A stretch of 64,000 nt of DNA from Thermodesulfobacteriota bacterium (GCA_965216785.1 OZ244197.1:704001-768000); one strand, 5' to 3'. Shown: positions 37,495 through 52,297, counted from the stretch's first letter. Notes: generated by a model from the letters alone, not told the origin. A program made the numbers and translations.

Positions 37495-38037
37495 TTAAGC
37501 ACTTACTTGCCTGCGGCGTAGGATCACAAAACCCGCTATTCCTAAAACTGATACCATCGCAATGAGACCCCACTCTGAAAGCGTTGGAATTGCCTCGGTT
37601 CTGGAATTAATAAATGTGCAACCAAGAAAACTGGGCTCGTTACAAGTGAGAGTTACACCTGAATCGACAATTGAATAACTTACACCGTTTTCTATAAAAG
37701 GCGCCTCAGCCTCGTTCTCTGCCATACCATTAAGCCCGCCACCGCAGCTTATGTCTCTGAGCACCCATCCGTTTACATCTCCCTGCGTCACCGTTACTGT
37801 ATCACCGAACGGAATAAGGACCAATCCATCATACGGTAGAGCGAAGGGTGAAAGAGTGAACTCGCGTTCCTCAGCACCAGTAACGGTATACGGGAACTCC
37901 GTCGAGCTTTCGGGTATCGTTTCAACTCCTATCATGATGGTGCAGCCACGTTGTTGGGCGTTCACATCAGAGTTAAAAACGAGCGCGCCGGATGACGCAA
38001 TAATAGCTAGAAACAAGAGATTTATTATATACTTCAT
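37495..38037 (-). CDS. IPTL-CTERM surface protein 1 (single CnaB/prealbumin-like domain)
   Basis: Signal peptide; GWVLRDISC...CTFIN; C-terminal AIPTLSEWG-TM-RRR. Confidence 0.88.
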   Translation of the reverse strand: MKYIINLLFLAIIASSGALVFNSDVNAQQRGCTIMIGVETIPESSTEFPYTVTGAEEREFTLSPFALPYDGLVLIPFGDTVTVTQGDVNGWVLRDISCGGGLNGMAENEAEAPFIENGVSYSIVDSGVTLTCNEPSFLGCTFINSRTEAIPTLSEWGLIAMVSVLGIAGFVILRRRQVSA

Positions 38038-38127
38038 TGTATCCTCCTTTCCTTGTAGTGGGCTTTATTATAACACGACCTTGGATATATGAAATTTTTG
38101 TTATTTCGATTCTCAAGGCTATAAAAT

Positions 38128-38155
38128 AAAAAAGGGAGCCGAAGCTCCCTTTTTT
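38128..38155 (-). terminator. Intrinsic terminator of IPTL-CTERM gene 2, same hairpin as gene 1
   Basis: AAAGGGAGCCGAAGCTCCCTTT duplicated from about 37439-37460. Confidence 0.85.
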
Positions 38156-38187
38156 AATCTTTTTAATTTTGTGAATTTAGATTCTGA

Positions 38188-38670
38188 TTAAGCACTTACT
38201 TGCCTGCGGCGTATTACGAAATATCCCACTGCGCCTAAGCCCAGAACTAGAGCTACCAATCCCCATTGGGAGATAGTCGGTATAGCCTCTGTTTGGGAAT
38301 TGATAAAAGTACATGATGCGAAACCGCCATTTTGAAGGCACTCAAAACTAATACCCGAGCCTACTTTGGTAATATTCATGTTGTTAATGTTTTCGCAGTC
38401 AATATCTCTGAGCACCCATCCTGCAACATCTCCCTGCGTTACCGTTGTTATATCGGAAGCCCCAATCTTCCTGGCTTGGACGGGATTGATAGTAAACTCC
38501 TCAGGGAATTCACCTGTAACCGTATACGGGAAATCTGTGTCGCTTCCGGGTATCGTATCTACGAATATAGTAGCACTACAAAAATTTTGGGCCTTTACAT
38601 CAGCACTGAATAAAAACGCGCCGGATGACGCAAGAACAGCTACAAATAAAAGATTTACTATGTATCTCAT
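38188..38670 (-). CDS. IPTL-CTERM surface protein 2
   Basis: Start ATG 38670 after AGGAGG; GWVLRDIDC...CTFIN; AIPTISQWG-TM-RRRQVSA. Confidence 0.88.
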   Translation of the reverse strand: MRYIVNLLFVAVLASSGAFLFSADVKAQNFCSATIFVDTIPGSDTDFPYTVTGEFPEEFTINPVQARKIGASDITTVTQGDVAGWVLRDIDCENINNMNITKVGSGISFECLQNGGFASCTFINSQTEAIPTISQWGLVALVLGLGAVGYFVIRRRQVSA

Positions 38671-38797
38671 AATTATATCCTCCTTAGGTTGATTGGGCTT
38701 AACTATATCACAATAAACCCATTCTGCATAGAAAAACTTAGTAATAATGAGCAATAAAGAGGTTTGTTATTAACAGTTCGGGTTAATTTAAATTTAT

Positions 38798-39298
38798 CTA
38801 AGCATTAATCAGCCTGCGGCGAAGAACCATAAACCCCGCTAAACCTAAAACGGCTACGAGTGCTATGACGCCCCACTGAGAAAATGTCGGAATGGCTTCT
38901 GCGGCAGTGTTCGAAAAGGTGCAAAAAGCCTGGCCACCACCCTCATCGCAAGTGATATCAGCATTCTTAGCCGCAGTAGATACTGTTGTGCCTCCATTAG
39001 TCCTGCAGTTTATGTTTCTGAGTACCCAACCCTCTGGTGTATCCTCAGCTACACTTACAAAATCACCAACCTGGATATCGAAAAACTCCGTATTTTCAGG
39101 CTGAACTAGTATTTCTCTGCTTAAATCGCCCGAAACCGTGAACCTGAACAATGTACCGTCATCCGGAAACGCCTCTTTTGTTATTCCTACTTCGCATACA
39201 GAGTCTTGTGCTCTTACATCAGCACTAAACACTAAAGAAACTGAAAAAATAGCGAGTGTTATGACAAACACACCTACGAATCTATTTACATATCTCAT
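38798..39298 (-). CDS. IPTL-CTERM surface protein 3
   Basis: Start ATG 39298 after GGAGG; GWVLRNINC...CTFSN; AIPTFSQWG-TM-RRR. Confidence 0.88.
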   Translation of the reverse strand: MRYVNRFVGVFVITLAIFSVSLVFSADVRAQDSVCEVGITKEAFPDDGTLFRFTVSGDLSREILVQPENTEFFDIQVGDFVSVAEDTPEGWVLRNINCRTNGGTTVSTAAKNADITCDEGGGQAFCTFSNTAAEAIPTFSQWGVIALVAVLGLAGFMVLRRRLINA

Positions 39299-39402
39299 TT
39301 TATCCTCCAATTGTTTTACTCGGTTAAATCTTTTTAGAAACTTAGGTATGATAATACCCGACCTGGATCTAAAATATATTTTTTTTAAGAGGACGATACT
39401 CC

Positions 39403-39768
39403 ATGCCGACATTGATCGAAAAACCTGCTGTTATCGAAGCTGCGGGCAACGTGCCAAAGAAAATAGAGGAATTCGCGGGCAGGGTGAATTCAGGACATAC
39501 CGAAGCGAGTATAGCGCGCATGACCTCTCCCGAAGGGTGGATTGAGCCCGGTCAACGTCCTGAATTTCAGGAAATTACGGTAGTTCTTGAGGGAACGCTT
39601 AATGTTGAGCATGAAAATGGAGAGTTGGAGGTAATCGCGGGGCAGGCCGTAGTAACAAACCCGGGAGAATGGGTTAGGTACAGCACACCTAAAGAAGGAG
39701 GGGCTAAATACATAGCCGTTTGTCTGCCCGCTTTTTCGCCCGATACGGTACATAGGGATTCTGAATAA
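39403..39768 (+). CDS. Cupin domain protein
   Basis: PK.IEEF.GRVN, GW.EPGQRPEF.E...VL.G, GEWVRYSTP. Confidence 0.82.
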   Translation: MPTLIEKPAVIEAAGNVPKKIEEFAGRVNSGHTEASIARMTSPEGWIEPGQRPEFQEITVVLEGTLNVEHENGELEVIAGQAVVTNPGEWVRYSTPKEGGAKYIAVCLPAFSPDTVHRDSE

Positions 39769-42916: not shown

Positions 42917-42945
42917 TTGACAGGTTTTAAATATACGCATATAAT
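42917..42945 (+). promoter_or_regulatory. Consensus sigma70 promoter of the metal-uptake operon
   Basis: TTGACA (42917-22), 17 nt, TATAAT (42940-45). Confidence 0.88.
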
Positions 42946-42964
42946 TGAGAAAGTTTCTCAATTA
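42942..42964. promoter_or_regulatory. Fur/Zur-type operator, perfect 11-1-11 palindrome
   Basis: TAATTGAGAAA-G-TTTCTCAATTA overlapping -10 and start region, upstream of a Fur-family gene. Confidence 0.85.
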
Positions 42965-43063
42965 GGACCAATCACACAATCTATTGTAACTATTTATAGA
43001 GAACGGAGCGGTTAGCACGGTCGTGTATTATCTTTAAAAAATAGGGTTTTTAAGTTAATAATC

Positions 43064-43480
43064 GTGTCAAAAGATATAAAAAGCATATTCCACGAGCAGG
43101 GACTGAAGTTTACGCCGCAGAGAAAGGCTGTACTTAAAGTCCTTCAGGATACGCACGCATATCTGCCGATAAATAAAATTCATACAAACGTAAAGGAGAT
43201 ACTCCCCGGCACAGGCCTGGCTACTGTATACCGCTCGCTTGAAACATTGGTCGATCTCGAATTAGTCGTGAAAGTTCACCTCAAAGACGGCTGCCACAGC
43301 TACGCGCTAGCACCCGAAGGGCACCGTCACCCTATTGTCTGTACCGACTGCAGTAAGGTAATCGAATACACAGAGTGCCCTATTGAGGAATTATCGAAAA
43401 AGGTATCAAAAGACACCGGCATCCCTATTCAAAACCATTTCCTTCAGCTTTTCGGGAAATGTAAGGAATGTAGGGCGTAA
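43064..43480 (+). CDS. Fur family transcriptional regulator (Zur-like by context)
   Basis: TPQRKAVL, ATVYRSL, CTDC and CKEC structural Zn pairs. Confidence 0.92.
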   Translation: MSKDIKSIFHEQGLKFTPQRKAVLKVLQDTHAYLPINKIHTNVKEILPGTGLATVYRSLETLVDLELVVKVHLKDGCHSYALAPEGHRHPIVCTDCSKVIEYTECPIEELSKKVSKDTGIPIQNHFLQLFGKCKECRA

Positions 43481-43495
43481 GGAAAATAAAAAGAT

Positions 43496-44167
43496 ATGTC
43501 ACATTTACACATACCCGACGGAGTGCTCCCCGGCTGGCTCGTATTAGCAGGCTGGTTATTCACAGCGGTATTACTCGCATTGTGTATATACAGAGTAAGG
43601 CGTGTAGAGCTGACCCGGAAGATCCCGCTCATCGGGATAATTTCAGCGCTCATGATCGTATGCATGACGCTGCCGGTGATTCCGTTTGCGTATCACGTGA
43701 ACCTGAGCGTAGTGGCCGGGATAATCCTTGGACCCGCGCTTGCGTTTATTTCAATATTCATCGTAGACCTGATAATAGCGATGTTCGGCCACGGGGGGAT
43801 AACCGTAGTCGGGCTTAATACTATTGTAGTCGGCGCCGAAGCAGTACTCGGTTATTACCTATTTCTAATGTTTAAAATGCTGATGGGTAACTATTCGGTC
43901 GGCTGGTCGTCGGGGATTGCAGCGGTGTTCAGCCTGATATTGAGCACAACATTACTAGTAGGTCTACTTTATGCAGCCCATGTGAACCCCGATCTAATGA
44001 TAGAGGCGGAATCACACGTAAAAAACGGGCTTAACATTGGCGTGTTCATAAAAACAGCCCTGACCATACTATTTTTCGGGTGGATGATCGAGGGAGTGAT
44101 TACAGGGCTCGTTATAAAGTACGTCTCGGGCATCCGGCCAGATTTGATACAGACGGACACAACATAG
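43496..44167 (+). CDS. ECF transporter S component, CbiM/NikM family, atypical N-terminus
   Basis: HIPDG.L, YH.N....AGIILGP, FGHGG.T..GLN, IEG.IT; begins MSHLHIPDG. Confidence 0.88.
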   Translation: MSHLHIPDGVLPGWLVLAGWLFTAVLLALCIYRVRRVELTRKIPLIGIISALMIVCMTLPVIPFAYHVNLSVVAGIILGPALAFISIFIVDLIIAMFGHGGITVVGLNTIVVGAEAVLGYYLFLMFKMLMGNYSVGWSSGIAAVFSLILSTTLLVGLLYAAHVNPDLMIEAESHVKNGLNIGVFIKTALTILFFGWMIEGVITGLVIKYVSGIRPDLIQTDTT

Positions 44168-44177
44168 GAAACAGAGA

Positions 44178-44981
44178 ATGGACATTGCACTAATAGATTA
44201 TTACGCAAATCATGGAAAGAGCTTTCTCCACAGCGCAGCGGCACCGAGCAAGCTACTGTTTTCAGCCCTGGTCATAGCCTCTGTAGTGATTACAGAAGAG
44301 TTTTACCTTTTGCTCGCCATTTATCTGTTACTTGTAAGCATGGCCGTATGGACAAGGCTTTCAGTTACTAAAATAATAACTATTGCGGCTTATCCTGCTA
44401 TATTCGCAATTTTATTCGTCATAGCAACCTGGGACGGAAGTCTGTTGAGAGCGGGGGTGATAATGTTAAAGGCCCTAACCGCCGCCCTTACTATGGTGAT
44501 TCTCATAGTAACCACTCCTTACCCCGATGTTTTTAAAACCCTAAAACCTATATTGCCCGGGATAATTCACGACGGGCTGTATCTGACGTACCGCTCGCTC
44601 TTCGTTCTGCTTGAAATGACCGATGAACTGGTTAAAGGTCTTAAGGTAAGAGGCGGTCTGACAAAAAAGAAATATTTCACAAACATCGCCAATTTCTCGT
44701 CCGGCATTGGGCTCGTGCTGGTAAAGGGGTTCGACATAACGGAAAAGTATTACGGTGTGATGAAAGTAAGGGGGTATACAGGGAAAATTGCGGCGGATAA
44801 AAACAGCAGGAGATTTAGTACAGAGGACTTAAGGGCAGTAGGATTTGGTGTATTAATATTCTCCGTAGCGCTTGGAGTTAAGCTTTATGGAAGTATCTAC
44901 AAATCGGGCTTATATGCGCTTATTCTTGCGGCAATCATTCTAATAATATCAATAGGATACATAGCTAAAGAGAGAAAATAA
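44178..44981 (+). CDS. ECF transporter T component (CbiQ/NikQ-like)
   Basis: SFLH.....SKL, TTPY, YR.LF.L, two xRG motifs (VRG, VRG). Confidence 0.85.
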   Translation: MDIALIDYYANHGKSFLHSAAAPSKLLFSALVIASVVITEEFYLLLAIYLLLVSMAVWTRLSVTKIITIAAYPAIFAILFVIATWDGSLLRAGVIMLKALTAALTMVILIVTTPYPDVFKTLKPILPGIIHDGLYLTYRSLFVLLEMTDELVKGLKVRGGLTKKKYFTNIANFSSGIGLVLVKGFDITEKYYGVMKVRGYTGKIAADKNSRRFSTEDLRAVGFGVLIFSVALGVKLYGSIYKSGLYALILAAIILIISIGYIAKERK

Positions 44982-44990
44982 GGAGAAACT

Positions 44991-45848
44991 TTGGAAGAGC
45001 TTGTAAAAGTAAGTAACCTGAAATTCAAATACCCCGACGGCACCTCGCTCTCATTTGACGGGCAGGAATTTACTGTGGGAAAAGGTGAGCGTGTAGCAAT
45101 ACTCGGACCCAACGGAAGCGGTAAATCTACACTTCTCTCGCTCCTTTTGGGACTATTAAAATCAACAGAGGGCGAGATCAATGTGCTCGGTGTAAACCCT
45201 GGAGCAGACTATGAGAAAGTACGCGAGCGAATAGGGGCGCTCCTTCAGAACGTGGAGCTTCAGATCATCGCCCCCCGCGTATGGGATGATATTTCATTTT
45301 CTCCACGGAACTACGGCTACGACAAGGAAGAGACAGATAAGCTTGTAGAGGAGCTTCTTGTTAAGCTCGATATTGACCACCTTAGAGATAAAGTGCCTCA
45401 TTACCTGAGCGGGGGGGAAAAAACCAAGGTTGCAATTGCGGGCGCTCTTGCCACTAGACCCGAGCTTTTAATCCTGGACGAGCCGTTCGAGCACATAGAC
45501 CCCACTTGCAGAAAAGAACAGATAAATCTGCTGAACAGCGTAAACCGCGAGCACGGAACAGCTATAGTATTATCAACACACAACATGAATACAGTGCCTC
45601 TTGTCGCAGATACGGTCTATTTGATCGGCGAGGGAGGACATATAGTTAAGAAAGGCACCCCGAAAGAGATTTTCTCTGATGTAGAGTCTCTTTCAAAATG
45701 CCATATTGAGCCTCCTATATTGGGAGAGCTCTTCTCGGAGCTTAAGAAAAGCGGCATAGATTTAGATGTATCTTTAACAGTAGAAGAGGCCGCTTGCACT
45801 TTAAGGGATATCTTGCTATCATCTAAAAACAGGTCGGACGTCGGATGA
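44991..45848 (+). CDS. ECF transporter ATPase (CbiO/NikO-like)
   Basis: GPNGSGKST, PHYLSGGEK..VAIAG, LILDEP; TTG start after GGAGA. Confidence 0.9.
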   Translation: MEELVKVSNLKFKYPDGTSLSFDGQEFTVGKGERVAILGPNGSGKSTLLSLLLGLLKSTEGEINVLGVNPGADYEKVRERIGALLQNVELQIIAPRVWDDISFSPRNYGYDKEETDKLVEELLVKLDIDHLRDKVPHYLSGGEKTKVAIAGALATRPELLILDEPFEHIDPTCRKEQINLLNSVNREHGTAIVLSTHNMNTVPLVADTVYLIGEGGHIVKKGTPKEIFSDVESLSKCHIEPPILGELFSELKKSGIDLDVSLTVEEAACTLRDILLSSKNRSDVG

Positions 45849-46183
45849 ATACAGTTAGAGAAAATATAATGAAAGGACCCGCAAGATTGTTACTGCCGAT
45901 GTTGGCAGTCATCTTCGTTATATCTATCAGCTTACACAATCATGCTATAGGTATAGACTCCGGATCTGTAATTGAGCTCTCCGACGCGGCGCCCGACACG
46001 CACCATTCGGTCCAGGATTGCTCTGCCTGTTTACTGCAGGGAAACGTTAAGCTGCCGGATATGGGTGCCGTATTCATTGCACCTATCCCGCTGATTATCA
46101 CATCCTTAGAAGAAACCGAATTTCTAATACCATCTTCATTCTTACAACTTAATAAACCCTCACGCTCACCGCCGACCGTATAG
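45845..46183 (+). CDS. DUF2946-like upstream ORF (signal-like N-terminus, His/CxxC, C-terminal RSPP)
   Basis: Hydrophobic stretch, LHNH, HHSVQDCSAC, terminal PSRSPPTV; alternative start 45869. Confidence 0.75.
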   Translation: MNTVRENIMKGPARLLLPMLAVIFVISISLHNHAIGIDSGSVIELSDAAPDTHHSVQDCSACLLQGNVKLPDMGAVFIAPIPLIITSLEETEFLIPSSFLQLNKPSRSPPTV

Positions 46184-46381
46184 CTTTCAGTTTGCCGTGT
46201 GAGCACAAGGGTGAAATGAACCGATAAATTCGCCCCAATTATACATATACATTCATATGTTCGGACTAAAGTGCGGAAGTTCCGTTTTTAGCGCCGAGGT
46301 TTTTTCTATTCAATAAGAAATAGCTCACACCGGCTGATTGGTTACCGGAATTCCATACTAATACACATTTGGAGGTGAGTT

Positions 46382-47767
46382 ATGCGTTTAAGAAGAATTA
46401 TCTTTACAGCAGTCCTAATTCTGTTTATATCTCCGGATTTTACACAGCAAGCATTTGGAGATGAGAAAAATGATGTAAAGCAGGAACTAAAAGAGCTCAG
46501 GAAAATGATGGAAACGATGCAGCAAAGAATTGATGAGCTTGAAGAGAAAAATGAAACATTGGAAAAACAAGCCAAAGAAAAAGACGAGACAATAGTAGTC
46601 GAAGAGGAAACGGATTTAACCGTGATTGAGCAGCCTGCCACTGAGCGGGAGGGATTTTTCCAGAGAGCCCTCAATACCTTTAACCCCGAGATAAGCGTAA
46701 TAGGTATATTCGCTGCCGCCTGGTATTCGCAGGACGACCCGATTGTATTCGCTGAGGCAGACCCTGAAAATACTGGCGTTAATCTACAGGAACTCGAGAT
46801 CGGATTTCAGGGCGTTATAGACTCCTACTTCAGGTTCGATGCTTTCCTCTCTTTCGGAATCGAAGGAGTGGAGCTTGAAGAAGCATACGGGACAACGCTT
46901 TTCAGCCTGCCGCTTAACTCTCAGATAAGAGCGGGAAGAATGAGGGCCAAGTTCGGCAGGATCAACCAAATCCACAGACACAACCAGAACTTCGTGACTC
47001 TGCCGCTACCCGCAGCTCAGTTCTTGGGCGAGCATCTAAACCCAACGAGCATAGAGGCTAATTTTCTTGTGCCCGTTCCTTGGTATATGGAGCTAAGCGC
47101 TCTGGGCGGAAGCCCTGACGTAGAGACACCGACCTTTGACAGGGACGAAAACGCAAACAACCTGGCAAGGCTCCTTTATATTTTCCATTTGGCAAACTTC
47201 GTTGAGGTCTCTGAGGCGCTTGGCGTAAGCTTGGGCGGCTCGTTCGCTACGGGCGCAAACAATACCGGGCGTGATGAGAGATCAAACCTATACGGTGTAG
47301 ACCTATTCGCCAAATACCGGCCGCTTAAAAATAACCCTTATCAGGAAGTGATGCTCCAGTCAGAGTTTATGTACCTAGACGCGGACACCCCTGAAGAGAA
47401 CCTCGAGAACTGGGGCTGGTACGCTCAGCTCGTTTACCGTTTCGCAAAGAGATGGAATACCGGATTTCGGTACGGGATAATCGACACGAATACACCTGTA
47501 CATGAAGAAGAGGAGCTAGAGGGTGATCCGGCCGGGCTGTTTAGTTTAATTAGGACAGGCGAGGAGGAAGAGGGACATGAAGAAGGGATGCTCGGTTTAG
47601 AAGGCAGAACGTACCGCCTATCGCCGATGCTGACTTTTAACCCGAGCGAATTCTCGCGCCTGAGAATACAGTACGACTACCTGAACCAGGACTTTGCCGA
47701 AAACCAGCACGCGATATTCCTTCAGTTCCAGTACTCGCTGGGAGCGCACGGGGCGCACCCGTTTTAA
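46382..47767 (+). CDS. Outer-membrane beta-barrel of the type associated with Zn ABC transporters
   Basis: Signal peptide, coiled coil, FNPEISVIG, EEAY, FGRINQIHRH, SEFSRLR.QY, C-terminal GAHGAHPF. Confidence 0.8.
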   Translation: MRLRRIIFTAVLILFISPDFTQQAFGDEKNDVKQELKELRKMMETMQQRIDELEEKNETLEKQAKEKDETIVVEEETDLTVIEQPATEREGFFQRALNTFNPEISVIGIFAAAWYSQDDPIVFAEADPENTGVNLQELEIGFQGVIDSYFRFDAFLSFGIEGVELEEAYGTTLFSLPLNSQIRAGRMRAKFGRINQIHRHNQNFVTLPLPAAQFLGEHLNPTSIEANFLVPVPWYMELSALGGSPDVETPTFDRDENANNLARLLYIFHLANFVEVSEALGVSLGGSFATGANNTGRDERSNLYGVDLFAKYRPLKNNPYQEVMLQSEFMYLDADTPEENLENWGWYAQLVYRFAKRWNTGFRYGIIDTNTPVHEEEELEGDPAGLFSLIRTGEEEEGHEEGMLGLEGRTYRLSPMLTFNPSEFSRLRIQYDYLNQDFAENQHAIFLQFQYSLGAHGAHPF

Positions 47768-47792
47768 GAAAACGTAATAGGAGAAAAGAGCT

Positions 47793-48776
47793 ATGAAAAA
47801 CAAAATTTCACTAAAACAATTTGCATTGAGTGTGTTATTTGCAGCGGCGGCGCTTGTTATGACCGATATACCCGCGCTTGCCCAGGTAAAGGTAGTGACT
47901 TCAGTACCGGACTTTGCCGCTATCGCAAAAGAGATCGGCGGAGACAGAGTAGAGGTAACGAGCCTCGCCAAGGGTTACCAAGACCCCCATTTCGTAGACG
48001 CAAAGCCGATTTTTATTACAAGGCTTAACCAGGCGGATATGCTTATCTATAACGGTCTTGACCTAGAAGTTGGGTGGCTGCCGATTCTCATTACTGGGGC
48101 AAGGAACTCAAATATCTCCTCTCCCCACGAAATCGGCCACTATAACGCCTCTGTATCAATTAAGGAATTTCTGGAAGTGCCCACTATACCAGTCGACAGG
48201 TCGATGGGGGACGTACACCCGGGGGGCAACCCTCACTATATGCTTGACCCCAGAAGCGGTATACCCGTCGCCAGAAGCATCGCTGCAAGACTCATACAAA
48301 TAGACACTGAGAACGCTTCATATTACGAGGAGAATTTCAACAACTTCGTCAGCACACTCAGGCTTAAGATAAGCGAATGGGAAGATGAGCTTGAGCCCTT
48401 TAAAGGCACTCAGGTCGTAACATACCATAAGCTCTGGAGCTACTTCTTGAATTGGGCGGGTTTTAAGAACGCGGGAACGATAGAACCTAAACCGGGAATA
48501 CCGCCTTCGCCTTCACACACTGCCGAGATTATAAACACGATGGAGCGTAAGAATGTCGGACTTATTATAGCGGCTAACTATTACCCGGAAAAAACGGCTT
48601 CGATTATCGCCCAGAAAACAGGCGTCATTTTCCTTTCTTTGCCTGCGATGGTTGAGGGGAGAGACGGTATAGAGAGCTATATTGAGCTATTCGACGCGCT
48701 CGTGGGCGAGATTACGTCTGCGCTTCAGAATAGGACAGGCTCGACTGAAATCAGGGCAGGATTTAATGACGGATAA
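47793..48776 (+). CDS. Zn/Mn ABC transporter substrate-binding protein (ZnuA-like, cluster A-I)
   Basis: IGGD.VEV, QDPHF, NGLDLE, HPGGNPHY.LDP, TYH. Confidence 0.9.
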   Translation: MKNKISLKQFALSVLFAAAALVMTDIPALAQVKVVTSVPDFAAIAKEIGGDRVEVTSLAKGYQDPHFVDAKPIFITRLNQADMLIYNGLDLEVGWLPILITGARNSNISSPHEIGHYNASVSIKEFLEVPTIPVDRSMGDVHPGGNPHYMLDPRSGIPVARSIAARLIQIDTENASYYEENFNNFVSTLRLKISEWEDELEPFKGTQVVTYHKLWSYFLNWAGFKNAGTIEPKPGIPPSPSHTAEIINTMERKNVGLIIAANYYPEKTASIIAQKTGVIFLSLPAMVEGRDGIESYIELFDALVGEITSALQNRTGSTEIRAGFNDG

Positions 48777-48872
48777 ATAAGTTTACATATCTCCAAAGGT
48801 GCCCCCGGGCTGCCCTTGAGAAGGGGACTCAGTCCGGGGGGGTTCTCACTTTCTAAGTCTGGGATAAAAACG

Positions 48873-49622
48873 ATGGCGAATCTCATAAAGCTTGAAAATC
48901 TAACAATAGGGTATGAAAAAAAAGCGCTCATTAAAACTTCTGATATATCCATAGACAGTGGACAATTTTGGGGAGTATTAGGGCCTAACGGGAGTGGGAA
49001 GAGCACTCTCCTTAAAACTATACTGGGATTAATACACCCTCTAGCGGGACAAGTTAATTCTAAAAAAGGTATAGTGCTGGGCTACGTTCCGCAGAGTGAA
49101 AAGTTTGACCCCATCTTTCCGGTTTCAGTGTATGAGCTCGTATCTATGGGACGATACAGCAGGGTCTCCCCCGGAAAGAGGCTCGGGATGAGGGATAGAG
49201 AAGCAATAGAGAGATCGATTGAAAAAGCGGGGATATCACACTTATCTAACCGCAAATTCCGCTCGCTTTCGGGAGGAGAGAAGCAGCGCTCGCTCCTCGC
49301 AAGGGCGATTGCTGGGGAGCCCGATATATTAGTACTAGATGAGCCAACGGCGGCGGTAGATATTAAGGGAGAGGCGCAAATAATGAGCCTTGTAAAAGAT
49401 ATAAAAAAGGAGAGCGGGCTTGCGGTTTTAATGGTCAGCCACTTTCTAAACACTATATCCGCATTTTCAGACTATATTATATTGATCGACAAGGACAAGG
49501 AGCTATTTCAGGCAGGCGAGAAGTCCGAAATTCTAAACAGCGAGAACCTGAGCGCGTTCTTCGGGCTGAACCTTGATATGGAGAGAATAAAGGAGATGCA
49601 GGCGATCGACCGCCTGACATAA
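48873..49622 (+). CDS. Metal ABC transporter ATPase (ZnuC-like)
   Basis: GPNGSGKST, GYVPQ, LSGGEKQR, LDEPT, VSH; start set at ATG 48873. Confidence 0.9.
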   Translation: MANLIKLENLTIGYEKKALIKTSDISIDSGQFWGVLGPNGSGKSTLLKTILGLIHPLAGQVNSKKGIVLGYVPQSEKFDPIFPVSVYELVSMGRYSRVSPGKRLGMRDREAIERSIEKAGISHLSNRKFRSLSGGEKQRSLLARAIAGEPDILVLDEPTAAVDIKGEAQIMSLVKDIKKESGLAVLMVSHFLNTISAFSDYIILIDKDKELFQAGEKSEILNSENLSAFFGLNLDMERIKEMQAIDRLT

Positions 49623-49634
49623 TGCTGGACTAAT

Positions 49635-50483
49635 ATGGCAACATTTGCTGAATTTATAAACAGCTACTTTCTATGGAGAGACCCTATGATAGTCGGGGCC
49701 GCCGCGGGTGCTGTGTGCGGTTTTCTCGGAGTATATGTGGTGCTGAGGCGCATAGTGTTCGTAAGCGCGGCGCTTACTCAAATATCGAGCTTCGGCGTTG
49801 GGTTAGCTTTTTATCTTGAAGCATACAGCATAGGGGTTTTCGCCTCATTATTCGATCCCTTTATACTGTCCTTGCTATTGACATGCCTGGCAGCCGTTTT
49901 CTTTTCATCAAAAAGGGATTTCTCACGGATAAGCACGGAAGGCGTTATTGCGTTTGGATTTTTACTGGCCTCGGGAGCAGTAGTTATAATAGGCGACAGG
50001 ATAACAAAAGGGGCGCATGATATAGCAAATATACTTTTCGGAAGCGCCGTTGTAGTTGACCCTTCAGACGTTTTGATAATACCCTCTGTTGCGCTTGCAG
50101 TATTTATAATTCACCTGATCTACTATAAAGATTTTGTATTCGTATCCTTTGACACCGAGACCGCGAAACTGTTTAAATATCCTGTAAGGCTGCTGAACAC
50201 CGGCCTCCTTATTACCATTGCAGTAGTAGTGGCTGTATCAACCAGAGCTCTCGGCGCGCTTCCCGTGTTTGCGTTATTAGCACTGCCGGCGCTTTCGTCG
50301 CTGCTCATAACGGAAAATCTGAAACTCGTTTTTATACTCTCCATAGTTATAGGAATCTTATCAGCAACTTTAGGCTACTTTTTCTCGTTTATTTTTTCAC
50401 TCCCGACAGGAGCGTCGATGACTGTTTGTGCGGCAATCTTTTTTCTTGTAGCGCTTGGGTTAAGGGAGTTAAGAGCAAGGTAA
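49635..50483 (+). CDS. Metal ABC transporter permease (ZnuB-like)
   Basis: LGVYVVLRR..F...AL, ILFGS, SFD.ETA, GAL.V.ALL.LP, LPTGA. Confidence 0.9.
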   Translation: MATFAEFINSYFLWRDPMIVGAAAGAVCGFLGVYVVLRRIVFVSAALTQISSFGVGLAFYLEAYSIGVFASLFDPFILSLLLTCLAAVFFSSKRDFSRISTEGVIAFGFLLASGAVVIIGDRITKGAHDIANILFGSAVVVDPSDVLIIPSVALAVFIIHLIYYKDFVFVSFDTETAKLFKYPVRLLNTGLLITIAVVVAVSTRALGALPVFALLALPALSSLLITENLKLVFILSIVIGILSATLGYFFSFIFSLPTGASMTVCAAIFFLVALGLRELRAR

Positions 50484-51023
50484 ATGAATATGCAAAGGGA
50501 ATACTTCATGGTCATGAGAATAGTACACGTACAGATAATTTTGATAATAACAGTATTATTTATAGGCTGTGCTCAATATGAAACCGCCATAGAGAAGCTG
50601 GAATGGTTAGAGCCCGACACATTTACATGCGACGTAGTGCAGGTCAGTAGCGGAGACACCTTCCTCTGCAGATTTCCAGACCTTGAAATCGATACAATCA
50701 GACTCGCCGGGATAAAAATTCCGGATAACAAAAAAAAGGAAGCTGAAATATTCACAAAGTCGGTACTAAAAAGAGGAACACTCGTAAATATAGAGCCTCA
50801 CAGGCAACAAAGAGCCGGATACGGCGGTATTTCAGCCTATGTATATGTACCGGGAGGAAAGATACTGAATATGCTTCTGTTAGAGAAAGGATACGCAGGA
50901 GTCGCCCGGGACGAGGTAAACGAAAAATACAAAGCGGAATTCATTAAAATAGAGGATAATAGGAGCGAGGAGACAGGGCTTATAGAAGAAGTAGAAACTG
51001 AAAAGAAACCCTGGGTTAAGTAA
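50484..51023 (+). CDS. Thermonuclease (SNase)-like lipoprotein, degenerate active site
   Basis: LFIGC lipobox; V..V.SGDT, IRLAGI, AYVY, N..LL.KGYA; start uncertain. Confidence 0.7.
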   Translation: MNMQREYFMVMRIVHVQIILIITVLFIGCAQYETAIEKLEWLEPDTFTCDVVQVSSGDTFLCRFPDLEIDTIRLAGIKIPDNKKKEAEIFTKSVLKRGTLVNIEPHRQQRAGYGGISAYVYVPGGKILNMLLLEKGYAGVARDEVNEKYKAEFIKIEDNRSEETGLIEEVETEKKPWVK

Positions 51024-51421: not shown

Positions 51422-52297
51422 ATGAGAAGAACAATATTGCTGTCATTATTAAGTATTTTCACTCTTGTAGCCGTAGGAATTACGGGATGCAAACAAGAAA
51501 CAGGCGACGCAAGCAAAGAGGCTGTTGAGGATACAGCCGCAGTACAGCAAAACAACCCTGCACCTGAAACCCAAGTTGAAGAGCCTAAGGTAATAATTGA
51601 AGCAGGGGAAAGATCCCCCGCTTTCCCGGGTGCAAAAGCACTATTTGCAAATATAAAAGACGGAGATGTCCTGGAAGACAATAACGTCTCTGTAGTAGTG
51701 GACGTACAGAACTATGAGCTTGGCATACAAACAGATACCGAAAGGGCCTCTGAAATCGCAAACTCCGCAAAAGGGCAGCACGCTCATATAATTCTAGATA
51801 ACGATCCCTACTTTGCCGATTATGAAGCCGGAGTGCCCTTTGATATAGGTACGCTTGATGAAGGCGCTCATACGATCCTGGTGTTTCCGAGCCGCTCCTA
51901 TCATGAGAGCGTAAAATCAGAAGGATCTGTGGATATAGTAAATTTTTACATCGGCAAGGAAGACGGGGAGTTTATGCTCGACAAATCAAAACCTACTATC
52001 ATTTACAGCAGGCCGAAAGGCAAATATGAGGGTAAGGACGCAGAAAAGATTATGCTCGATTTTTACCTTATTAATGCTGAGCTTGGCGATGATTACAATG
52101 CTAAATACACAATCCGTAAAAATGTAGCGGACGCTGTGGAGCATTCAATCACTATGACGGAATGGACCCCCGCGTTTGTAAGTGGTCTAAGTAGCGGAGA
52201 GTATGTTATTACTCTTCAGCTTTTAGATAAAGACGGGAACCTGGTTGATGGACCTTTTAACAATACCCAAAGAACAATTTCCGTTGTTACTGAATAG
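51422..52297 (+). CDS. Lipoprotein with His-motif Ig-like domains, function unknown
   Basis: GITGC lipobox; GQHAHIILDN; FPSRSYHESVK; YSRPKG.Y. Confidence 0.65.
   Translation: MRRTILLSLLSIFTLVAVGITGCKQETGDASKEAVEDTAAVQQNNPAPETQVEEPKVIIEAGERSPAFPGAKALFANIKDGDVLEDNNVSVVVDVQNYELGIQTDTERASEIANSAKGQHAHIILDNDPYFADYEAGVPFDIGTLDEGAHTILVFPSRSYHESVKSEGSVDIVNFYIGKEDGEFMLDKSKPTIIYSRPKGKYEGKDAEKIMLDFYLINAELGDDYNAKYTIRKNVADAVEHSITMTEWTPAFVSGLSSGEYVITLQLLDKDGNLVDGPFNNTQRTISVVTE

Follow-up and report, generated by a model that had tools for sequence, protein, structure and literature searches.

The operon at positions 42917 to 50483 of a 64,000-nucleotide stretch of Thermodesulfobacteriota bacterium DNA (GCA_965216785.1 OZ244197.1:704001-768000; the whole stretch is called the window here) raises the question of which metal is served when genes for an energy-coupling factor (ECF) transporter of cobalt/nickel type stand between a Fur-family regulator and a znuACB set, and how such an operon would be controlled. 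We consider it very likely that this is a zinc-uptake operon and probable, with less confidence, that it is a zinc-starvation operon with two layers of control, in which a predicted Zur acts on the transcript and a leader peptide gates translation of an outer-membrane porin and ZnuACB. In the mechanism we propose, Zn-loaded Zur on a palindrome at the -10 box would repress its own operon and loss of Zn would free the promoter, after which the ECF trio (M, Q, and O, without an N, K, or L partner) would import Zn2+ through the inner membrane. A ribosome stalled at the RSPP motif of the leader would mask a strand otherwise paired with the porin Shine-Dalgarno sequence (a predicted pairing, accompanied by an observed codon bias), so that the exposed ribosome-binding site (RBS) would allow the porin, and likely also the closely spaced znuACB genes, to be translated; metal on the HxH, His, and CxxC motifs would release the stall and shut the porin-znuACB half. 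The porin would admit Zn2+ to the periplasm and ZnuACB would import it. In the genome that carries the window (G000, estimated 92% complete) the parts are laid out as follows:

42917..42945, + strand: sigma-70 promoter TTGACA-17-TATAAT, 12/12 consensus positions, -35 and -10 conserved among relatives
42942..42964, no strand: Fur-family operator, a predicted Zur box, perfect 11-1-11 palindrome (23 bp) covering the -10 box
43064..43480, + strand: Fur-family repressor, predicted Zur, with sensing site H87, H89, C105, H125 plus a Cys4 site (Pfam FUR; ligand offsets)
43496..44167, + strand: ECF S component of CbiM/NikM fold, start MSHLHIPDG (Pfam CbiM; model; alignment to 4M58)
44178..44981, + strand: ECF T component, CbiQ family (Pfam CbiQ)
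44991..45848, + strand: ECF ATPase, CbiO/EcfA family (Pfam ABC_tran)
45845..46183, + strand: CruR-like leader of 112 residues, with a hydrophobic segment, HxH, H-x4-CxxC, 44 residues, and RSPP
46163..46175, + strand: RSPP codons, the predicted anti-Shine-Dalgarno strand, partner 46369-46380 (folding)
46184..46381, + strand: structured intergenic region of 198 nt, ending in the porin RBS GGAGGTGA (46371-46378)
46382..47767, + strand: outer-membrane protein with signal peptide, N-terminal coiled coil, predicted 16-strand porin, and GAHGAHPF C-terminus
47793..48776, + strand: ZnuA-family binding protein, His at all three conserved ligand positions (Pfam ZnuA; PDB matches)
48873..49622, + strand: ZnuC-type ATPase (Pfam ABC_tran; best NCBIfam match AztA, below cut-off)
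49635..50483, + strand: ZnuB-type permease (Pfam ABC-3)
50484..51023, + strand: SNase-like lipoprotein, likely the tenth gene of the transcript (0-nt gap after znuB)

The promoter was the sole 12/12 sigma-70 match within 10.5 kb; since the total of promoter-like sites in that interval was not above that of shuffles (19 versus 17.5 +/- 3.9), the case for it is made by its full agreement with the consensus and by its conservation. In loci taken from 20 relatives, out of 25 that gave a match, we saw the operator upstream of the fur gene in 19/20, the remaining locus having an assembly gap there, so that the consensus promoter and perfect operator reported in the initial annotation are both present and conserved. 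Against a position weight matrix (PWM) built from the 20 operators the window's site scored 36.9 bits and the runner-up in the genome 16.1; no copy with 4 or fewer mismatches occurs elsewhere in the 3.1-Mb genome. The PWM scan of G000 for a wider regulon returned no second strong site, and neither the COG0523 gene nor the third ZnuA-family gene of the genome has a clear operator box.

Counted from the first structural Cys, the regulator's ligands lie at H(-6), H(-4), C(+12), H(+32), C(+40), and C(+43), offsets that were identical in 21/21 family-level sequences and in 11/11 from other families. SynZur of Synechococcus WH8102 (PDB 7NE9) has its equivalents D77, H79, C95, H115, C123, and C126 at the same spacing; there DNA binding requires Cys95, Asp77 is His in 11% of homologs, and canonical site 2 is absent (PMC9337993). 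The regulator resembles SynZur in having its sole sensing site in the dimerization domain, with an Arg separating the first two ligands in most homologs and no canonical site 2, and differs in having His for Asp77 (His3Cys), in its distant sequence (E 4e-9), and in occurring outside cyanobacteria; its operator, AATTGAGAA-N-TTTCTCAATT, is unlike the cyanobacterial box quoted in PMC9337993. Given this equal ligand spacing, the regulator is most likely a Zur whose site has a published precedent, and the combination of a Cys4 site, a D/H-x-H...C...H site, the missing site 2, and a predicted palindromic box over the promoter of putative zinc-uptake genes is that of a cyanobacterial-type Zur. The non-canonical Fur of the initial annotation is thus non-canonical in lacking site 2, but not unprecedented. 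Autoregulated zur, ZnuABC, and an outer-membrane uptake gene are also shared with Zur regulons containing ZnuABC and ZupT; the text of the review describing these names no ECF, CbiM, or NikM (PMC6103462), whereas the operon here has an ECF.

The S component, with its 7-helix fold and accompanying T and A genes, belongs to the CbiM/NikM ECF type. Its model (pLDDT 92) matched NikM2 (4M58) with TM 0.72 and RcCbiMQO (5X3X) with TM 0.67; a single-sequence PDB search was empty and a profile search found 4M58. It thus shares the S fold and the T and A components with CbiMNQO/NikMNQO (PMC3945884, PMC7689651), and keeps His at mature position 2 together with the GG loop and the equivalents of His67, Asn109, and Glu198. 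NikM binds Ni through the Met1 amine, the His2 amide and imidazole, and His67, and in NikM/CbiM additional N-terminal residues abolish transport (PMC3945884). In place of the canonical fixed-length Met1-His2-x-P-[DE]-G start, 21/21 S proteins of the family begin MSHxHIPDG, and among 150 representatives at 50% identity there were 115 with the extended HxH start, one canonical, and 34 outside the pattern. With a looser pattern (n=126), residue 2 was Ser, Thr, Ala, Val, or Gly in 113 and Asn in three, and His followed Met directly in 10. A small second residue leads to removal of the initiator Met; under this rule His becomes mature position 2 in 123/126, and the resulting Ser-His-x-His N-terminus would retain the canonical amine/His2 pair. 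That His was the only invariant column of a 112-row alignment, which is biased in that 104 of its rows are full-length representatives chosen from the 150. The protein differs from CbiM/NikM in two extra N-terminal loop residues (x-His), which supply a second N-terminal His, in gaining His99, and in having hydrophobic residues at the Gln94 and His190 positions, so that the planar-site network is not reproduced. No CbiN/NikN-type partner was found, CbiN (PF02553) and PDGLE (PF13190) being found in 0/25 family genomes in a search that did not cover the NikK/NikL families.

A further difference from CbiM/NikM is that a Zur-like gene stands first in the bacterial loci examined, in place of a B12 riboswitch or NikR. 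A pattern scan for this M[ST]HxHxPDG subfamily gave 119 loci in many phyla, of an estimated ~400; besides Dadabacteria, the labels of the records include Bacillota, Actinomycetota, Deltaproteobacteria, Nitrospirota, Chloroflexota, Eisenbacteria, and others. This synteny check, which the initial annotation had proposed, placed a Fur gene at the head of 28/66 long loci outside the lineage. These 28 Fur proteins are Zur-like, with a Cys at +11/+12 in 28/28 and the canonical Zur site-2 Cys in 22/28, and a Fur-type box lay upstream in 17/28 Fur-headed loci versus 0/28 control stretches. No NikR-like gene was seen in the 119 loci and no cobalamin or NiCo riboswitch in the 14 non-Fur loci tested; the M-Q gap was 60 nt or less in 57/63 outside loci.

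What occupies the slot between zur with its operator and the leader varies among relatives, whose source names point to Candidatus Dadabacteria. It holds the ECF trio in the window's own family (S-component gene in 23/24 genomes) and in G028, and the locus of G096 reads ECF then leader before the contig ends short of zur. Behind the same regulator and operator the slot holds a ZIP transporter in G038, G025, G032, and three metagenome loci (L191-193), a second ZnuACB in G083 and G040, and nothing in G051; no ZIP was found in G000 by tblastn. That two unrelated zinc-type importer families occupy the one slot is the strongest argument for the ECF moving zinc, an argument that comes from context. 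Together with the Zur-type site it gives independent comparative support to the earlier claim of a zinc regulon, and with the Zur-like neighbors it makes likely the claim that the ECF serves that regulon. In the metagenome locus L066 (- strand) zur is followed by a 70-residue fusion of the ECF M start with an ATPase fragment, then znuACB and a leader, which reads as deletion and replacement of the ECF trio; separately, in G083 and G040 a protein of 150-160 residues without an NCBIfam match separates znuC from znuB (L241:8083-8565, L242:1495-1953).

Gene order bears on whether the operon is one unit. The nine-gene order was kept in 18/20 relative loci, three of these with frame breaks or gaps; of the two exceptions one was cut by a contig end and the other, from another family, was fur-M-Q-O only. 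Among 91 genomes from the phylum, 67 yielded the porin and 26 the S gene. In four genomes of another family (G030, G087, G093, G084) zur-ECF and the porin are unlinked, no clear operator was seen at the leader-porin-znuACB loci of G030, G087, G093, G036, and G095, and searches of G036, G095, and G098 returned neither a Zur orthologue (E 1e-30) nor an ECF, so the leader would be the sole visible regulator of the cassette in genomes of this last kind. The two halves therefore appear to be separable modules. The initial annotation had treated them as one system and had said that halves independently transcribed and unlinked in relatives would refute its reading; linkage holds within the family and fails, in part, beyond it, which goes some way towards that refutation. 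Likewise, the nine-gene set it considered a novel combination is a lineage-specific assembly in which each part varies a known kind, and the broader novelty is in the ECF subfamily and the leader.

We regard zinc as the probable substrate of the ECF on this comparative evidence, and several observations weigh against it. An N-terminal amine/amide/His site fits Ni or Cu better than Zn (PMC3945884), and in Mycoplasma genitalium ECF genes are likewise controlled by a Zn-responsive Fur-family repressor, with a mutant that accumulates Ni; that module differs in that no S component was identified there (PMC6968530). No adjacent Fur gene was present in 38/66 outside loci (five of them with too little upstream DNA), and a Fur-type box was found in 0/36 loci without Fur. 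The only two nickel superoxide dismutase (NiSOD) genes among 25 family genomes (sodN in G001 and G005) are both at most 1 kb past the operon, with a convergent gene in between. Haloarchaeal relatives (~30% identity) have the same extended start with a NikR-like gene ahead and a small partner gene. The halves are unlinked in the four genomes named above, and the genomes are kin, so that our counts are non-independent. These points, with the CbiM/NikM fold and the retained Xaa-His N-terminus, His67, and Glu198 equivalents, would suit a Zur-controlled operon whose second half imports zinc but whose ECF imports nickel, cobalt, or several divalent metals, for zinc substitution or NiSOD supply. We consider this unlikely: the ECF was found in 23/24 family genomes but NiSOD in 2/25 and hydrogenase in 0/25, and in G000 we did not find NiFe hydrogenase, urease, HypA, CbiC, NikR, LarA, CODH/HCP, or NiSOD. 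In relatives the ECF is also replaced by ZIP or ZnuACB, and no N-type partner was found, which CbiM needs for Co transport, CbiM plus CbiN being the minimal cobalt unit (PMC7689651). The haloarchaeal case is mixed, since the NikR-like proteins there are atypical (a His replaced by Cys, and scores that fail the cut-offs) and have a ZigA-like GTPase in their vicinity; these regulators are possibly NikR paralogs sensing another metal. Two such loci, in which atypical NikR-like regulators head an extended-N-terminus ECF by a ZigA-like GTPase, are on haloarchaeal plasmids (L259:4452-9511, L260:1150-7706).

That the whole operon answers to iron or manganese seems to us highly improbable. The operator does resemble generic Fur boxes, and the regulator scored 41 bits against the NCBIfam Zur model (cut-off 167), its best matches being Fur and PerR, all below cut-off; but it lacks the iron-Fur site-2 ligands, solved Fe-Fur and Nur proteins have no +12 Cys, and the ZnuA has three His. 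G000 also encodes two further Fur proteins, whose motifs we read as resembling those of iron Fur and of PerR; a separate Mn-type ABC operon is headed by what looks like a DtxR-like regulator, presumably an MntR-like system.

The second layer of control would be the leader. All 20 homologs have the hydrophobic segment, HxH, H-x4-CxxC, and an R[SA]PP motif near the stop, with exactly 44 residues between CxxC and the arrest motif (45 in CruR), and His31, His33, and His54 are invariant. The layout is that of DUF2946-type leaders, with an export signal (judged from hydrophobicity alone), CxxC, and a RAPP-like motif near the C-terminus; the DUF2946 hidden Markov model (HMM; PF11162) did not match the leader, its best E-value being 0.082 in 1/20 homologs, and one Atlas look-alike cluster of the leader was 12% DUF2946. 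The DUF2946-like upstream reading frame of the initial annotation is therefore CruR-like in layout and falls below the HMM. Like CruR (Bordetella) and CutF (Rhodobacter) it has a hydrophobic segment near the N-terminus, a CxxC at a fixed distance from a C-terminal R[ASG]PP, a long structured intergenic region, and an outer-membrane or exported target (PMC9426467, PMC9973294, bioRxiv 2025.02.05.636593). It differs in its HMM score, its extra invariant His, its zinc-type cassette as target, and its place inside a repressor-controlled operon, where it is the fifth gene; in G030, G087, G093, G036, G095, and G037 it is the first. RSPP is partly permissive for arrest (PMC12992588). Sensing in the envelope, as earlier proposed, is conjectural, the CruR signal peptide being dispensable (PMC9426467). 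The leader preceded the porin in 41/41 metagenome loci with enough upstream DNA.

By folding, the RSPP codons pair with the porin Shine-Dalgarno sequence across the intergenic region, with probability >0.5 in 62/73 distinct loci. The first Pro codon was CCT, the complement of AGG in GGAGG, in 66/73 loci versus a background of 27%, and the second varied. The duplex with the RBS had an energy of -16.6 kcal/mol versus -11.2 +/- 0.3 after synonymous recoding (0/300), and opening the RBS, at a cost of 12.9 kcal/mol, took 6.4 once a ribosome-sized footprint covered the motif, as against 12.4 for a control footprint; the cost was lower by at least 3 kcal/mol in 55/70 loci with the motif footprint versus 6/70 with the control. 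As the RSPP codons form the anti-Shine-Dalgarno strand of the porin, stalling is predicted to open translation, and CutF and SecM provide known cases in which a stall relieves RBS occlusion (bioRxiv 2025.02.05.636593, PMC9973294). The leader here would combine CruR polarity with CutF/SecM-type occlusion, the arrest codons themselves being the anti-Shine-Dalgarno strand. Some observations weigh against this: the Shine-Dalgarno sequence is still predicted mostly paired despite the footprint in 46/70 loci, the window's own first Pro codon is CCG (one mismatch), the CCT bias could be a tRNA preference for stalling, and G025 has no leader. Covariation in the helix columns was weak: Watson-Crick pairs were in excess at three positions (14-17 of 2000 shuffles), marginally so at another (40 of 2000), and not at two, kinship being uncorrected. 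Altogether we think there is a good case that the leader gates the porin RBS, and the codon bias, pairing, and conserved leader give comparative support to the arrest-peptide gate proposed earlier for the second half. The leader's metal, membrane side, and polarity we infer, and zinc is favored slightly as its ligand.

Both leaders of DUF2946 type that have been characterized use a Cys motif to sense Cu (PMC9426467; bioRxiv 2025.02.05.636593), the spacing here is within one residue of that in CruR, and G000 has a second, Cys-rich leader of the same RSPP/anti-Shine-Dalgarno design, so the leader may instead sense copper or export/redox status, or have CutF polarity, with metal inducing the stall. 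Such a role appears rather unlikely for a leader that adds three invariant His, always stands ahead of a porin-ZnuA cassette, and lies directly behind an operator-like site in G037, G074, G082, G070, G083, G040, and L228; metal-induced opening would also be odd for an importer. The leader may also act by CruR-like Rho-dependent termination and not by RBS occlusion, which would suit the long intergenic region and a C>G excess in the leader's last 150 nt in 20/20 loci. Since the porin 3' end shows the same excess in 19/20 loci, it says nothing specific about the leader; the region is also highly structured, and codon-level complementarity to the Shine-Dalgarno sequence would have no role. We consider Rho in place of occlusion improbable, and the two could operate in series. 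Returning to the second leader (G000:C1:572209-572632, + strand; HCFCYSCC), its RSPP codons also pair with the Shine-Dalgarno sequence of the next gene, which encodes a secreted protein with a GHAPIGVMGDH motif, presumably copper-related.

The outer-membrane protein (461 residues) was modeled with pLDDT 76 as a 16-strand barrel without a plug, best matched by OprP (Z 25.4, root-mean-square deviation 3.3, 305 aligned), with the first TonB receptor at Z 11.3. We rejected a TonB-dependent receptor, which would have a 22-strand barrel and plug, so the barrel of the initial annotation, whose GAHGAHPF C-terminus we confirmed, is better described as a predicted OprP-like porin. It shares with OprP/OprO (PDB 2O4V) the 16-strand barrel with an inward loop and differs in sequence (15% identity), its coiled-coil N-terminus, and its HGAH tail; invariant acidic and His residues suggest a cation channel. 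The family has ~2,000 homologs, nearly all unnamed among the matches listed. A distant porin lineage (~27% identity; family f8; L243, L244, L245, L255) has its own operator-like site, an RGPP leader (HxHxG...CxxC), and then znuA and a znuB-like gene. The ZnuA of the window best matched the zinc-uptake binding proteins 2ov1/1pq4 in the PDB, and alignment to these gave three His ligands, the third being Glu in Mn proteins; all NCBIfam models were below cut-off.

The nine co-oriented genes noted initially are all present, and the SNase-like gene, also 3' of znuB in 16/18 complete relative loci, makes a tenth. Gaps among the nine reading frames run from -4 to 25 nt apart from the 198 nt between leader and barrel and 96 nt between znuA and the znuC ATG (48873), and the leader start overlaps the cbiO stop in 18/20 homologs. 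The Pfam series runs FUR, CbiM, CbiQ, ABC_tran, none for the leader, weak OMP_b-brl, ZnuA, ABC_tran, and ABC-3. We saw no convincing intrinsic terminator inside the operon, and an Rfam scan of the region gave one chance match and no riboswitch, the one cobalamin riboswitch of the genome being ~29 kb beyond the operon. Nearby, window positions 51422-52297 (+) encode a 291-residue lipoprotein with conserved-looking His motifs and no Pfam/NCBIfam match, at the place of the NiSOD gene in G001 and G005, and 37495-39412 (-) three tandem secreted paralogs with a C-terminal sorting motif of IPT[LIF]S[EQ]WG type, which we take to be IPTL-CTERM. Elsewhere in G000, a canonical-looking iron Fur box lies 5' of a short reading frame (C1:3116931-3116951), and a His-rich small outer-membrane-like protein adjoins a lone ZnuA-family gene just past two tRNA-like sequences (C1:2044970-2046617, + strand), a locus in which no operator was found.

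Taken as a whole, the zinc regulon, the ECF, and the leader gate of the initial annotation gained comparative support; its non-canonical Fur has a published precedent, its envelope sensing is conjectural, and its two halves are separable. The wider proposal, that M[ST]HxH ECF transporters import zinc without an N-type partner and that the leader, as the first arrest peptide that senses zinc, gates an OprP-like porin selective for zinc, we offer tentatively and with some doubt. No description of an ECF or an arrest peptide for zinc was found in the open-access literature, a scope without RegPrecise and subscription papers, and the word zinc is absent from the main texts of the four leader papers searched (PMC9426467, PMC12992588, PMC9973294, bioRxiv 2025.02.05.636593). 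Metal ECF transporters have been described for Co and Ni, with selectivity ascribed to a fixed-length N-terminus. If our reading is true, zinc would be a new class of ECF substrate and the transporter a new route of bacterial zinc uptake, annotations as cobalt/nickel permease would be corrected across many phyla, and the extended His-rich N-terminus would allow a direct test of whether the N-terminal loop sets metal choice. A zinc-linked leader with a defined anti-Shine-Dalgarno strand, set beside the characterized DUF2946-type leaders that sense copper, would show that metal sensing by a nascent chain is tunable.

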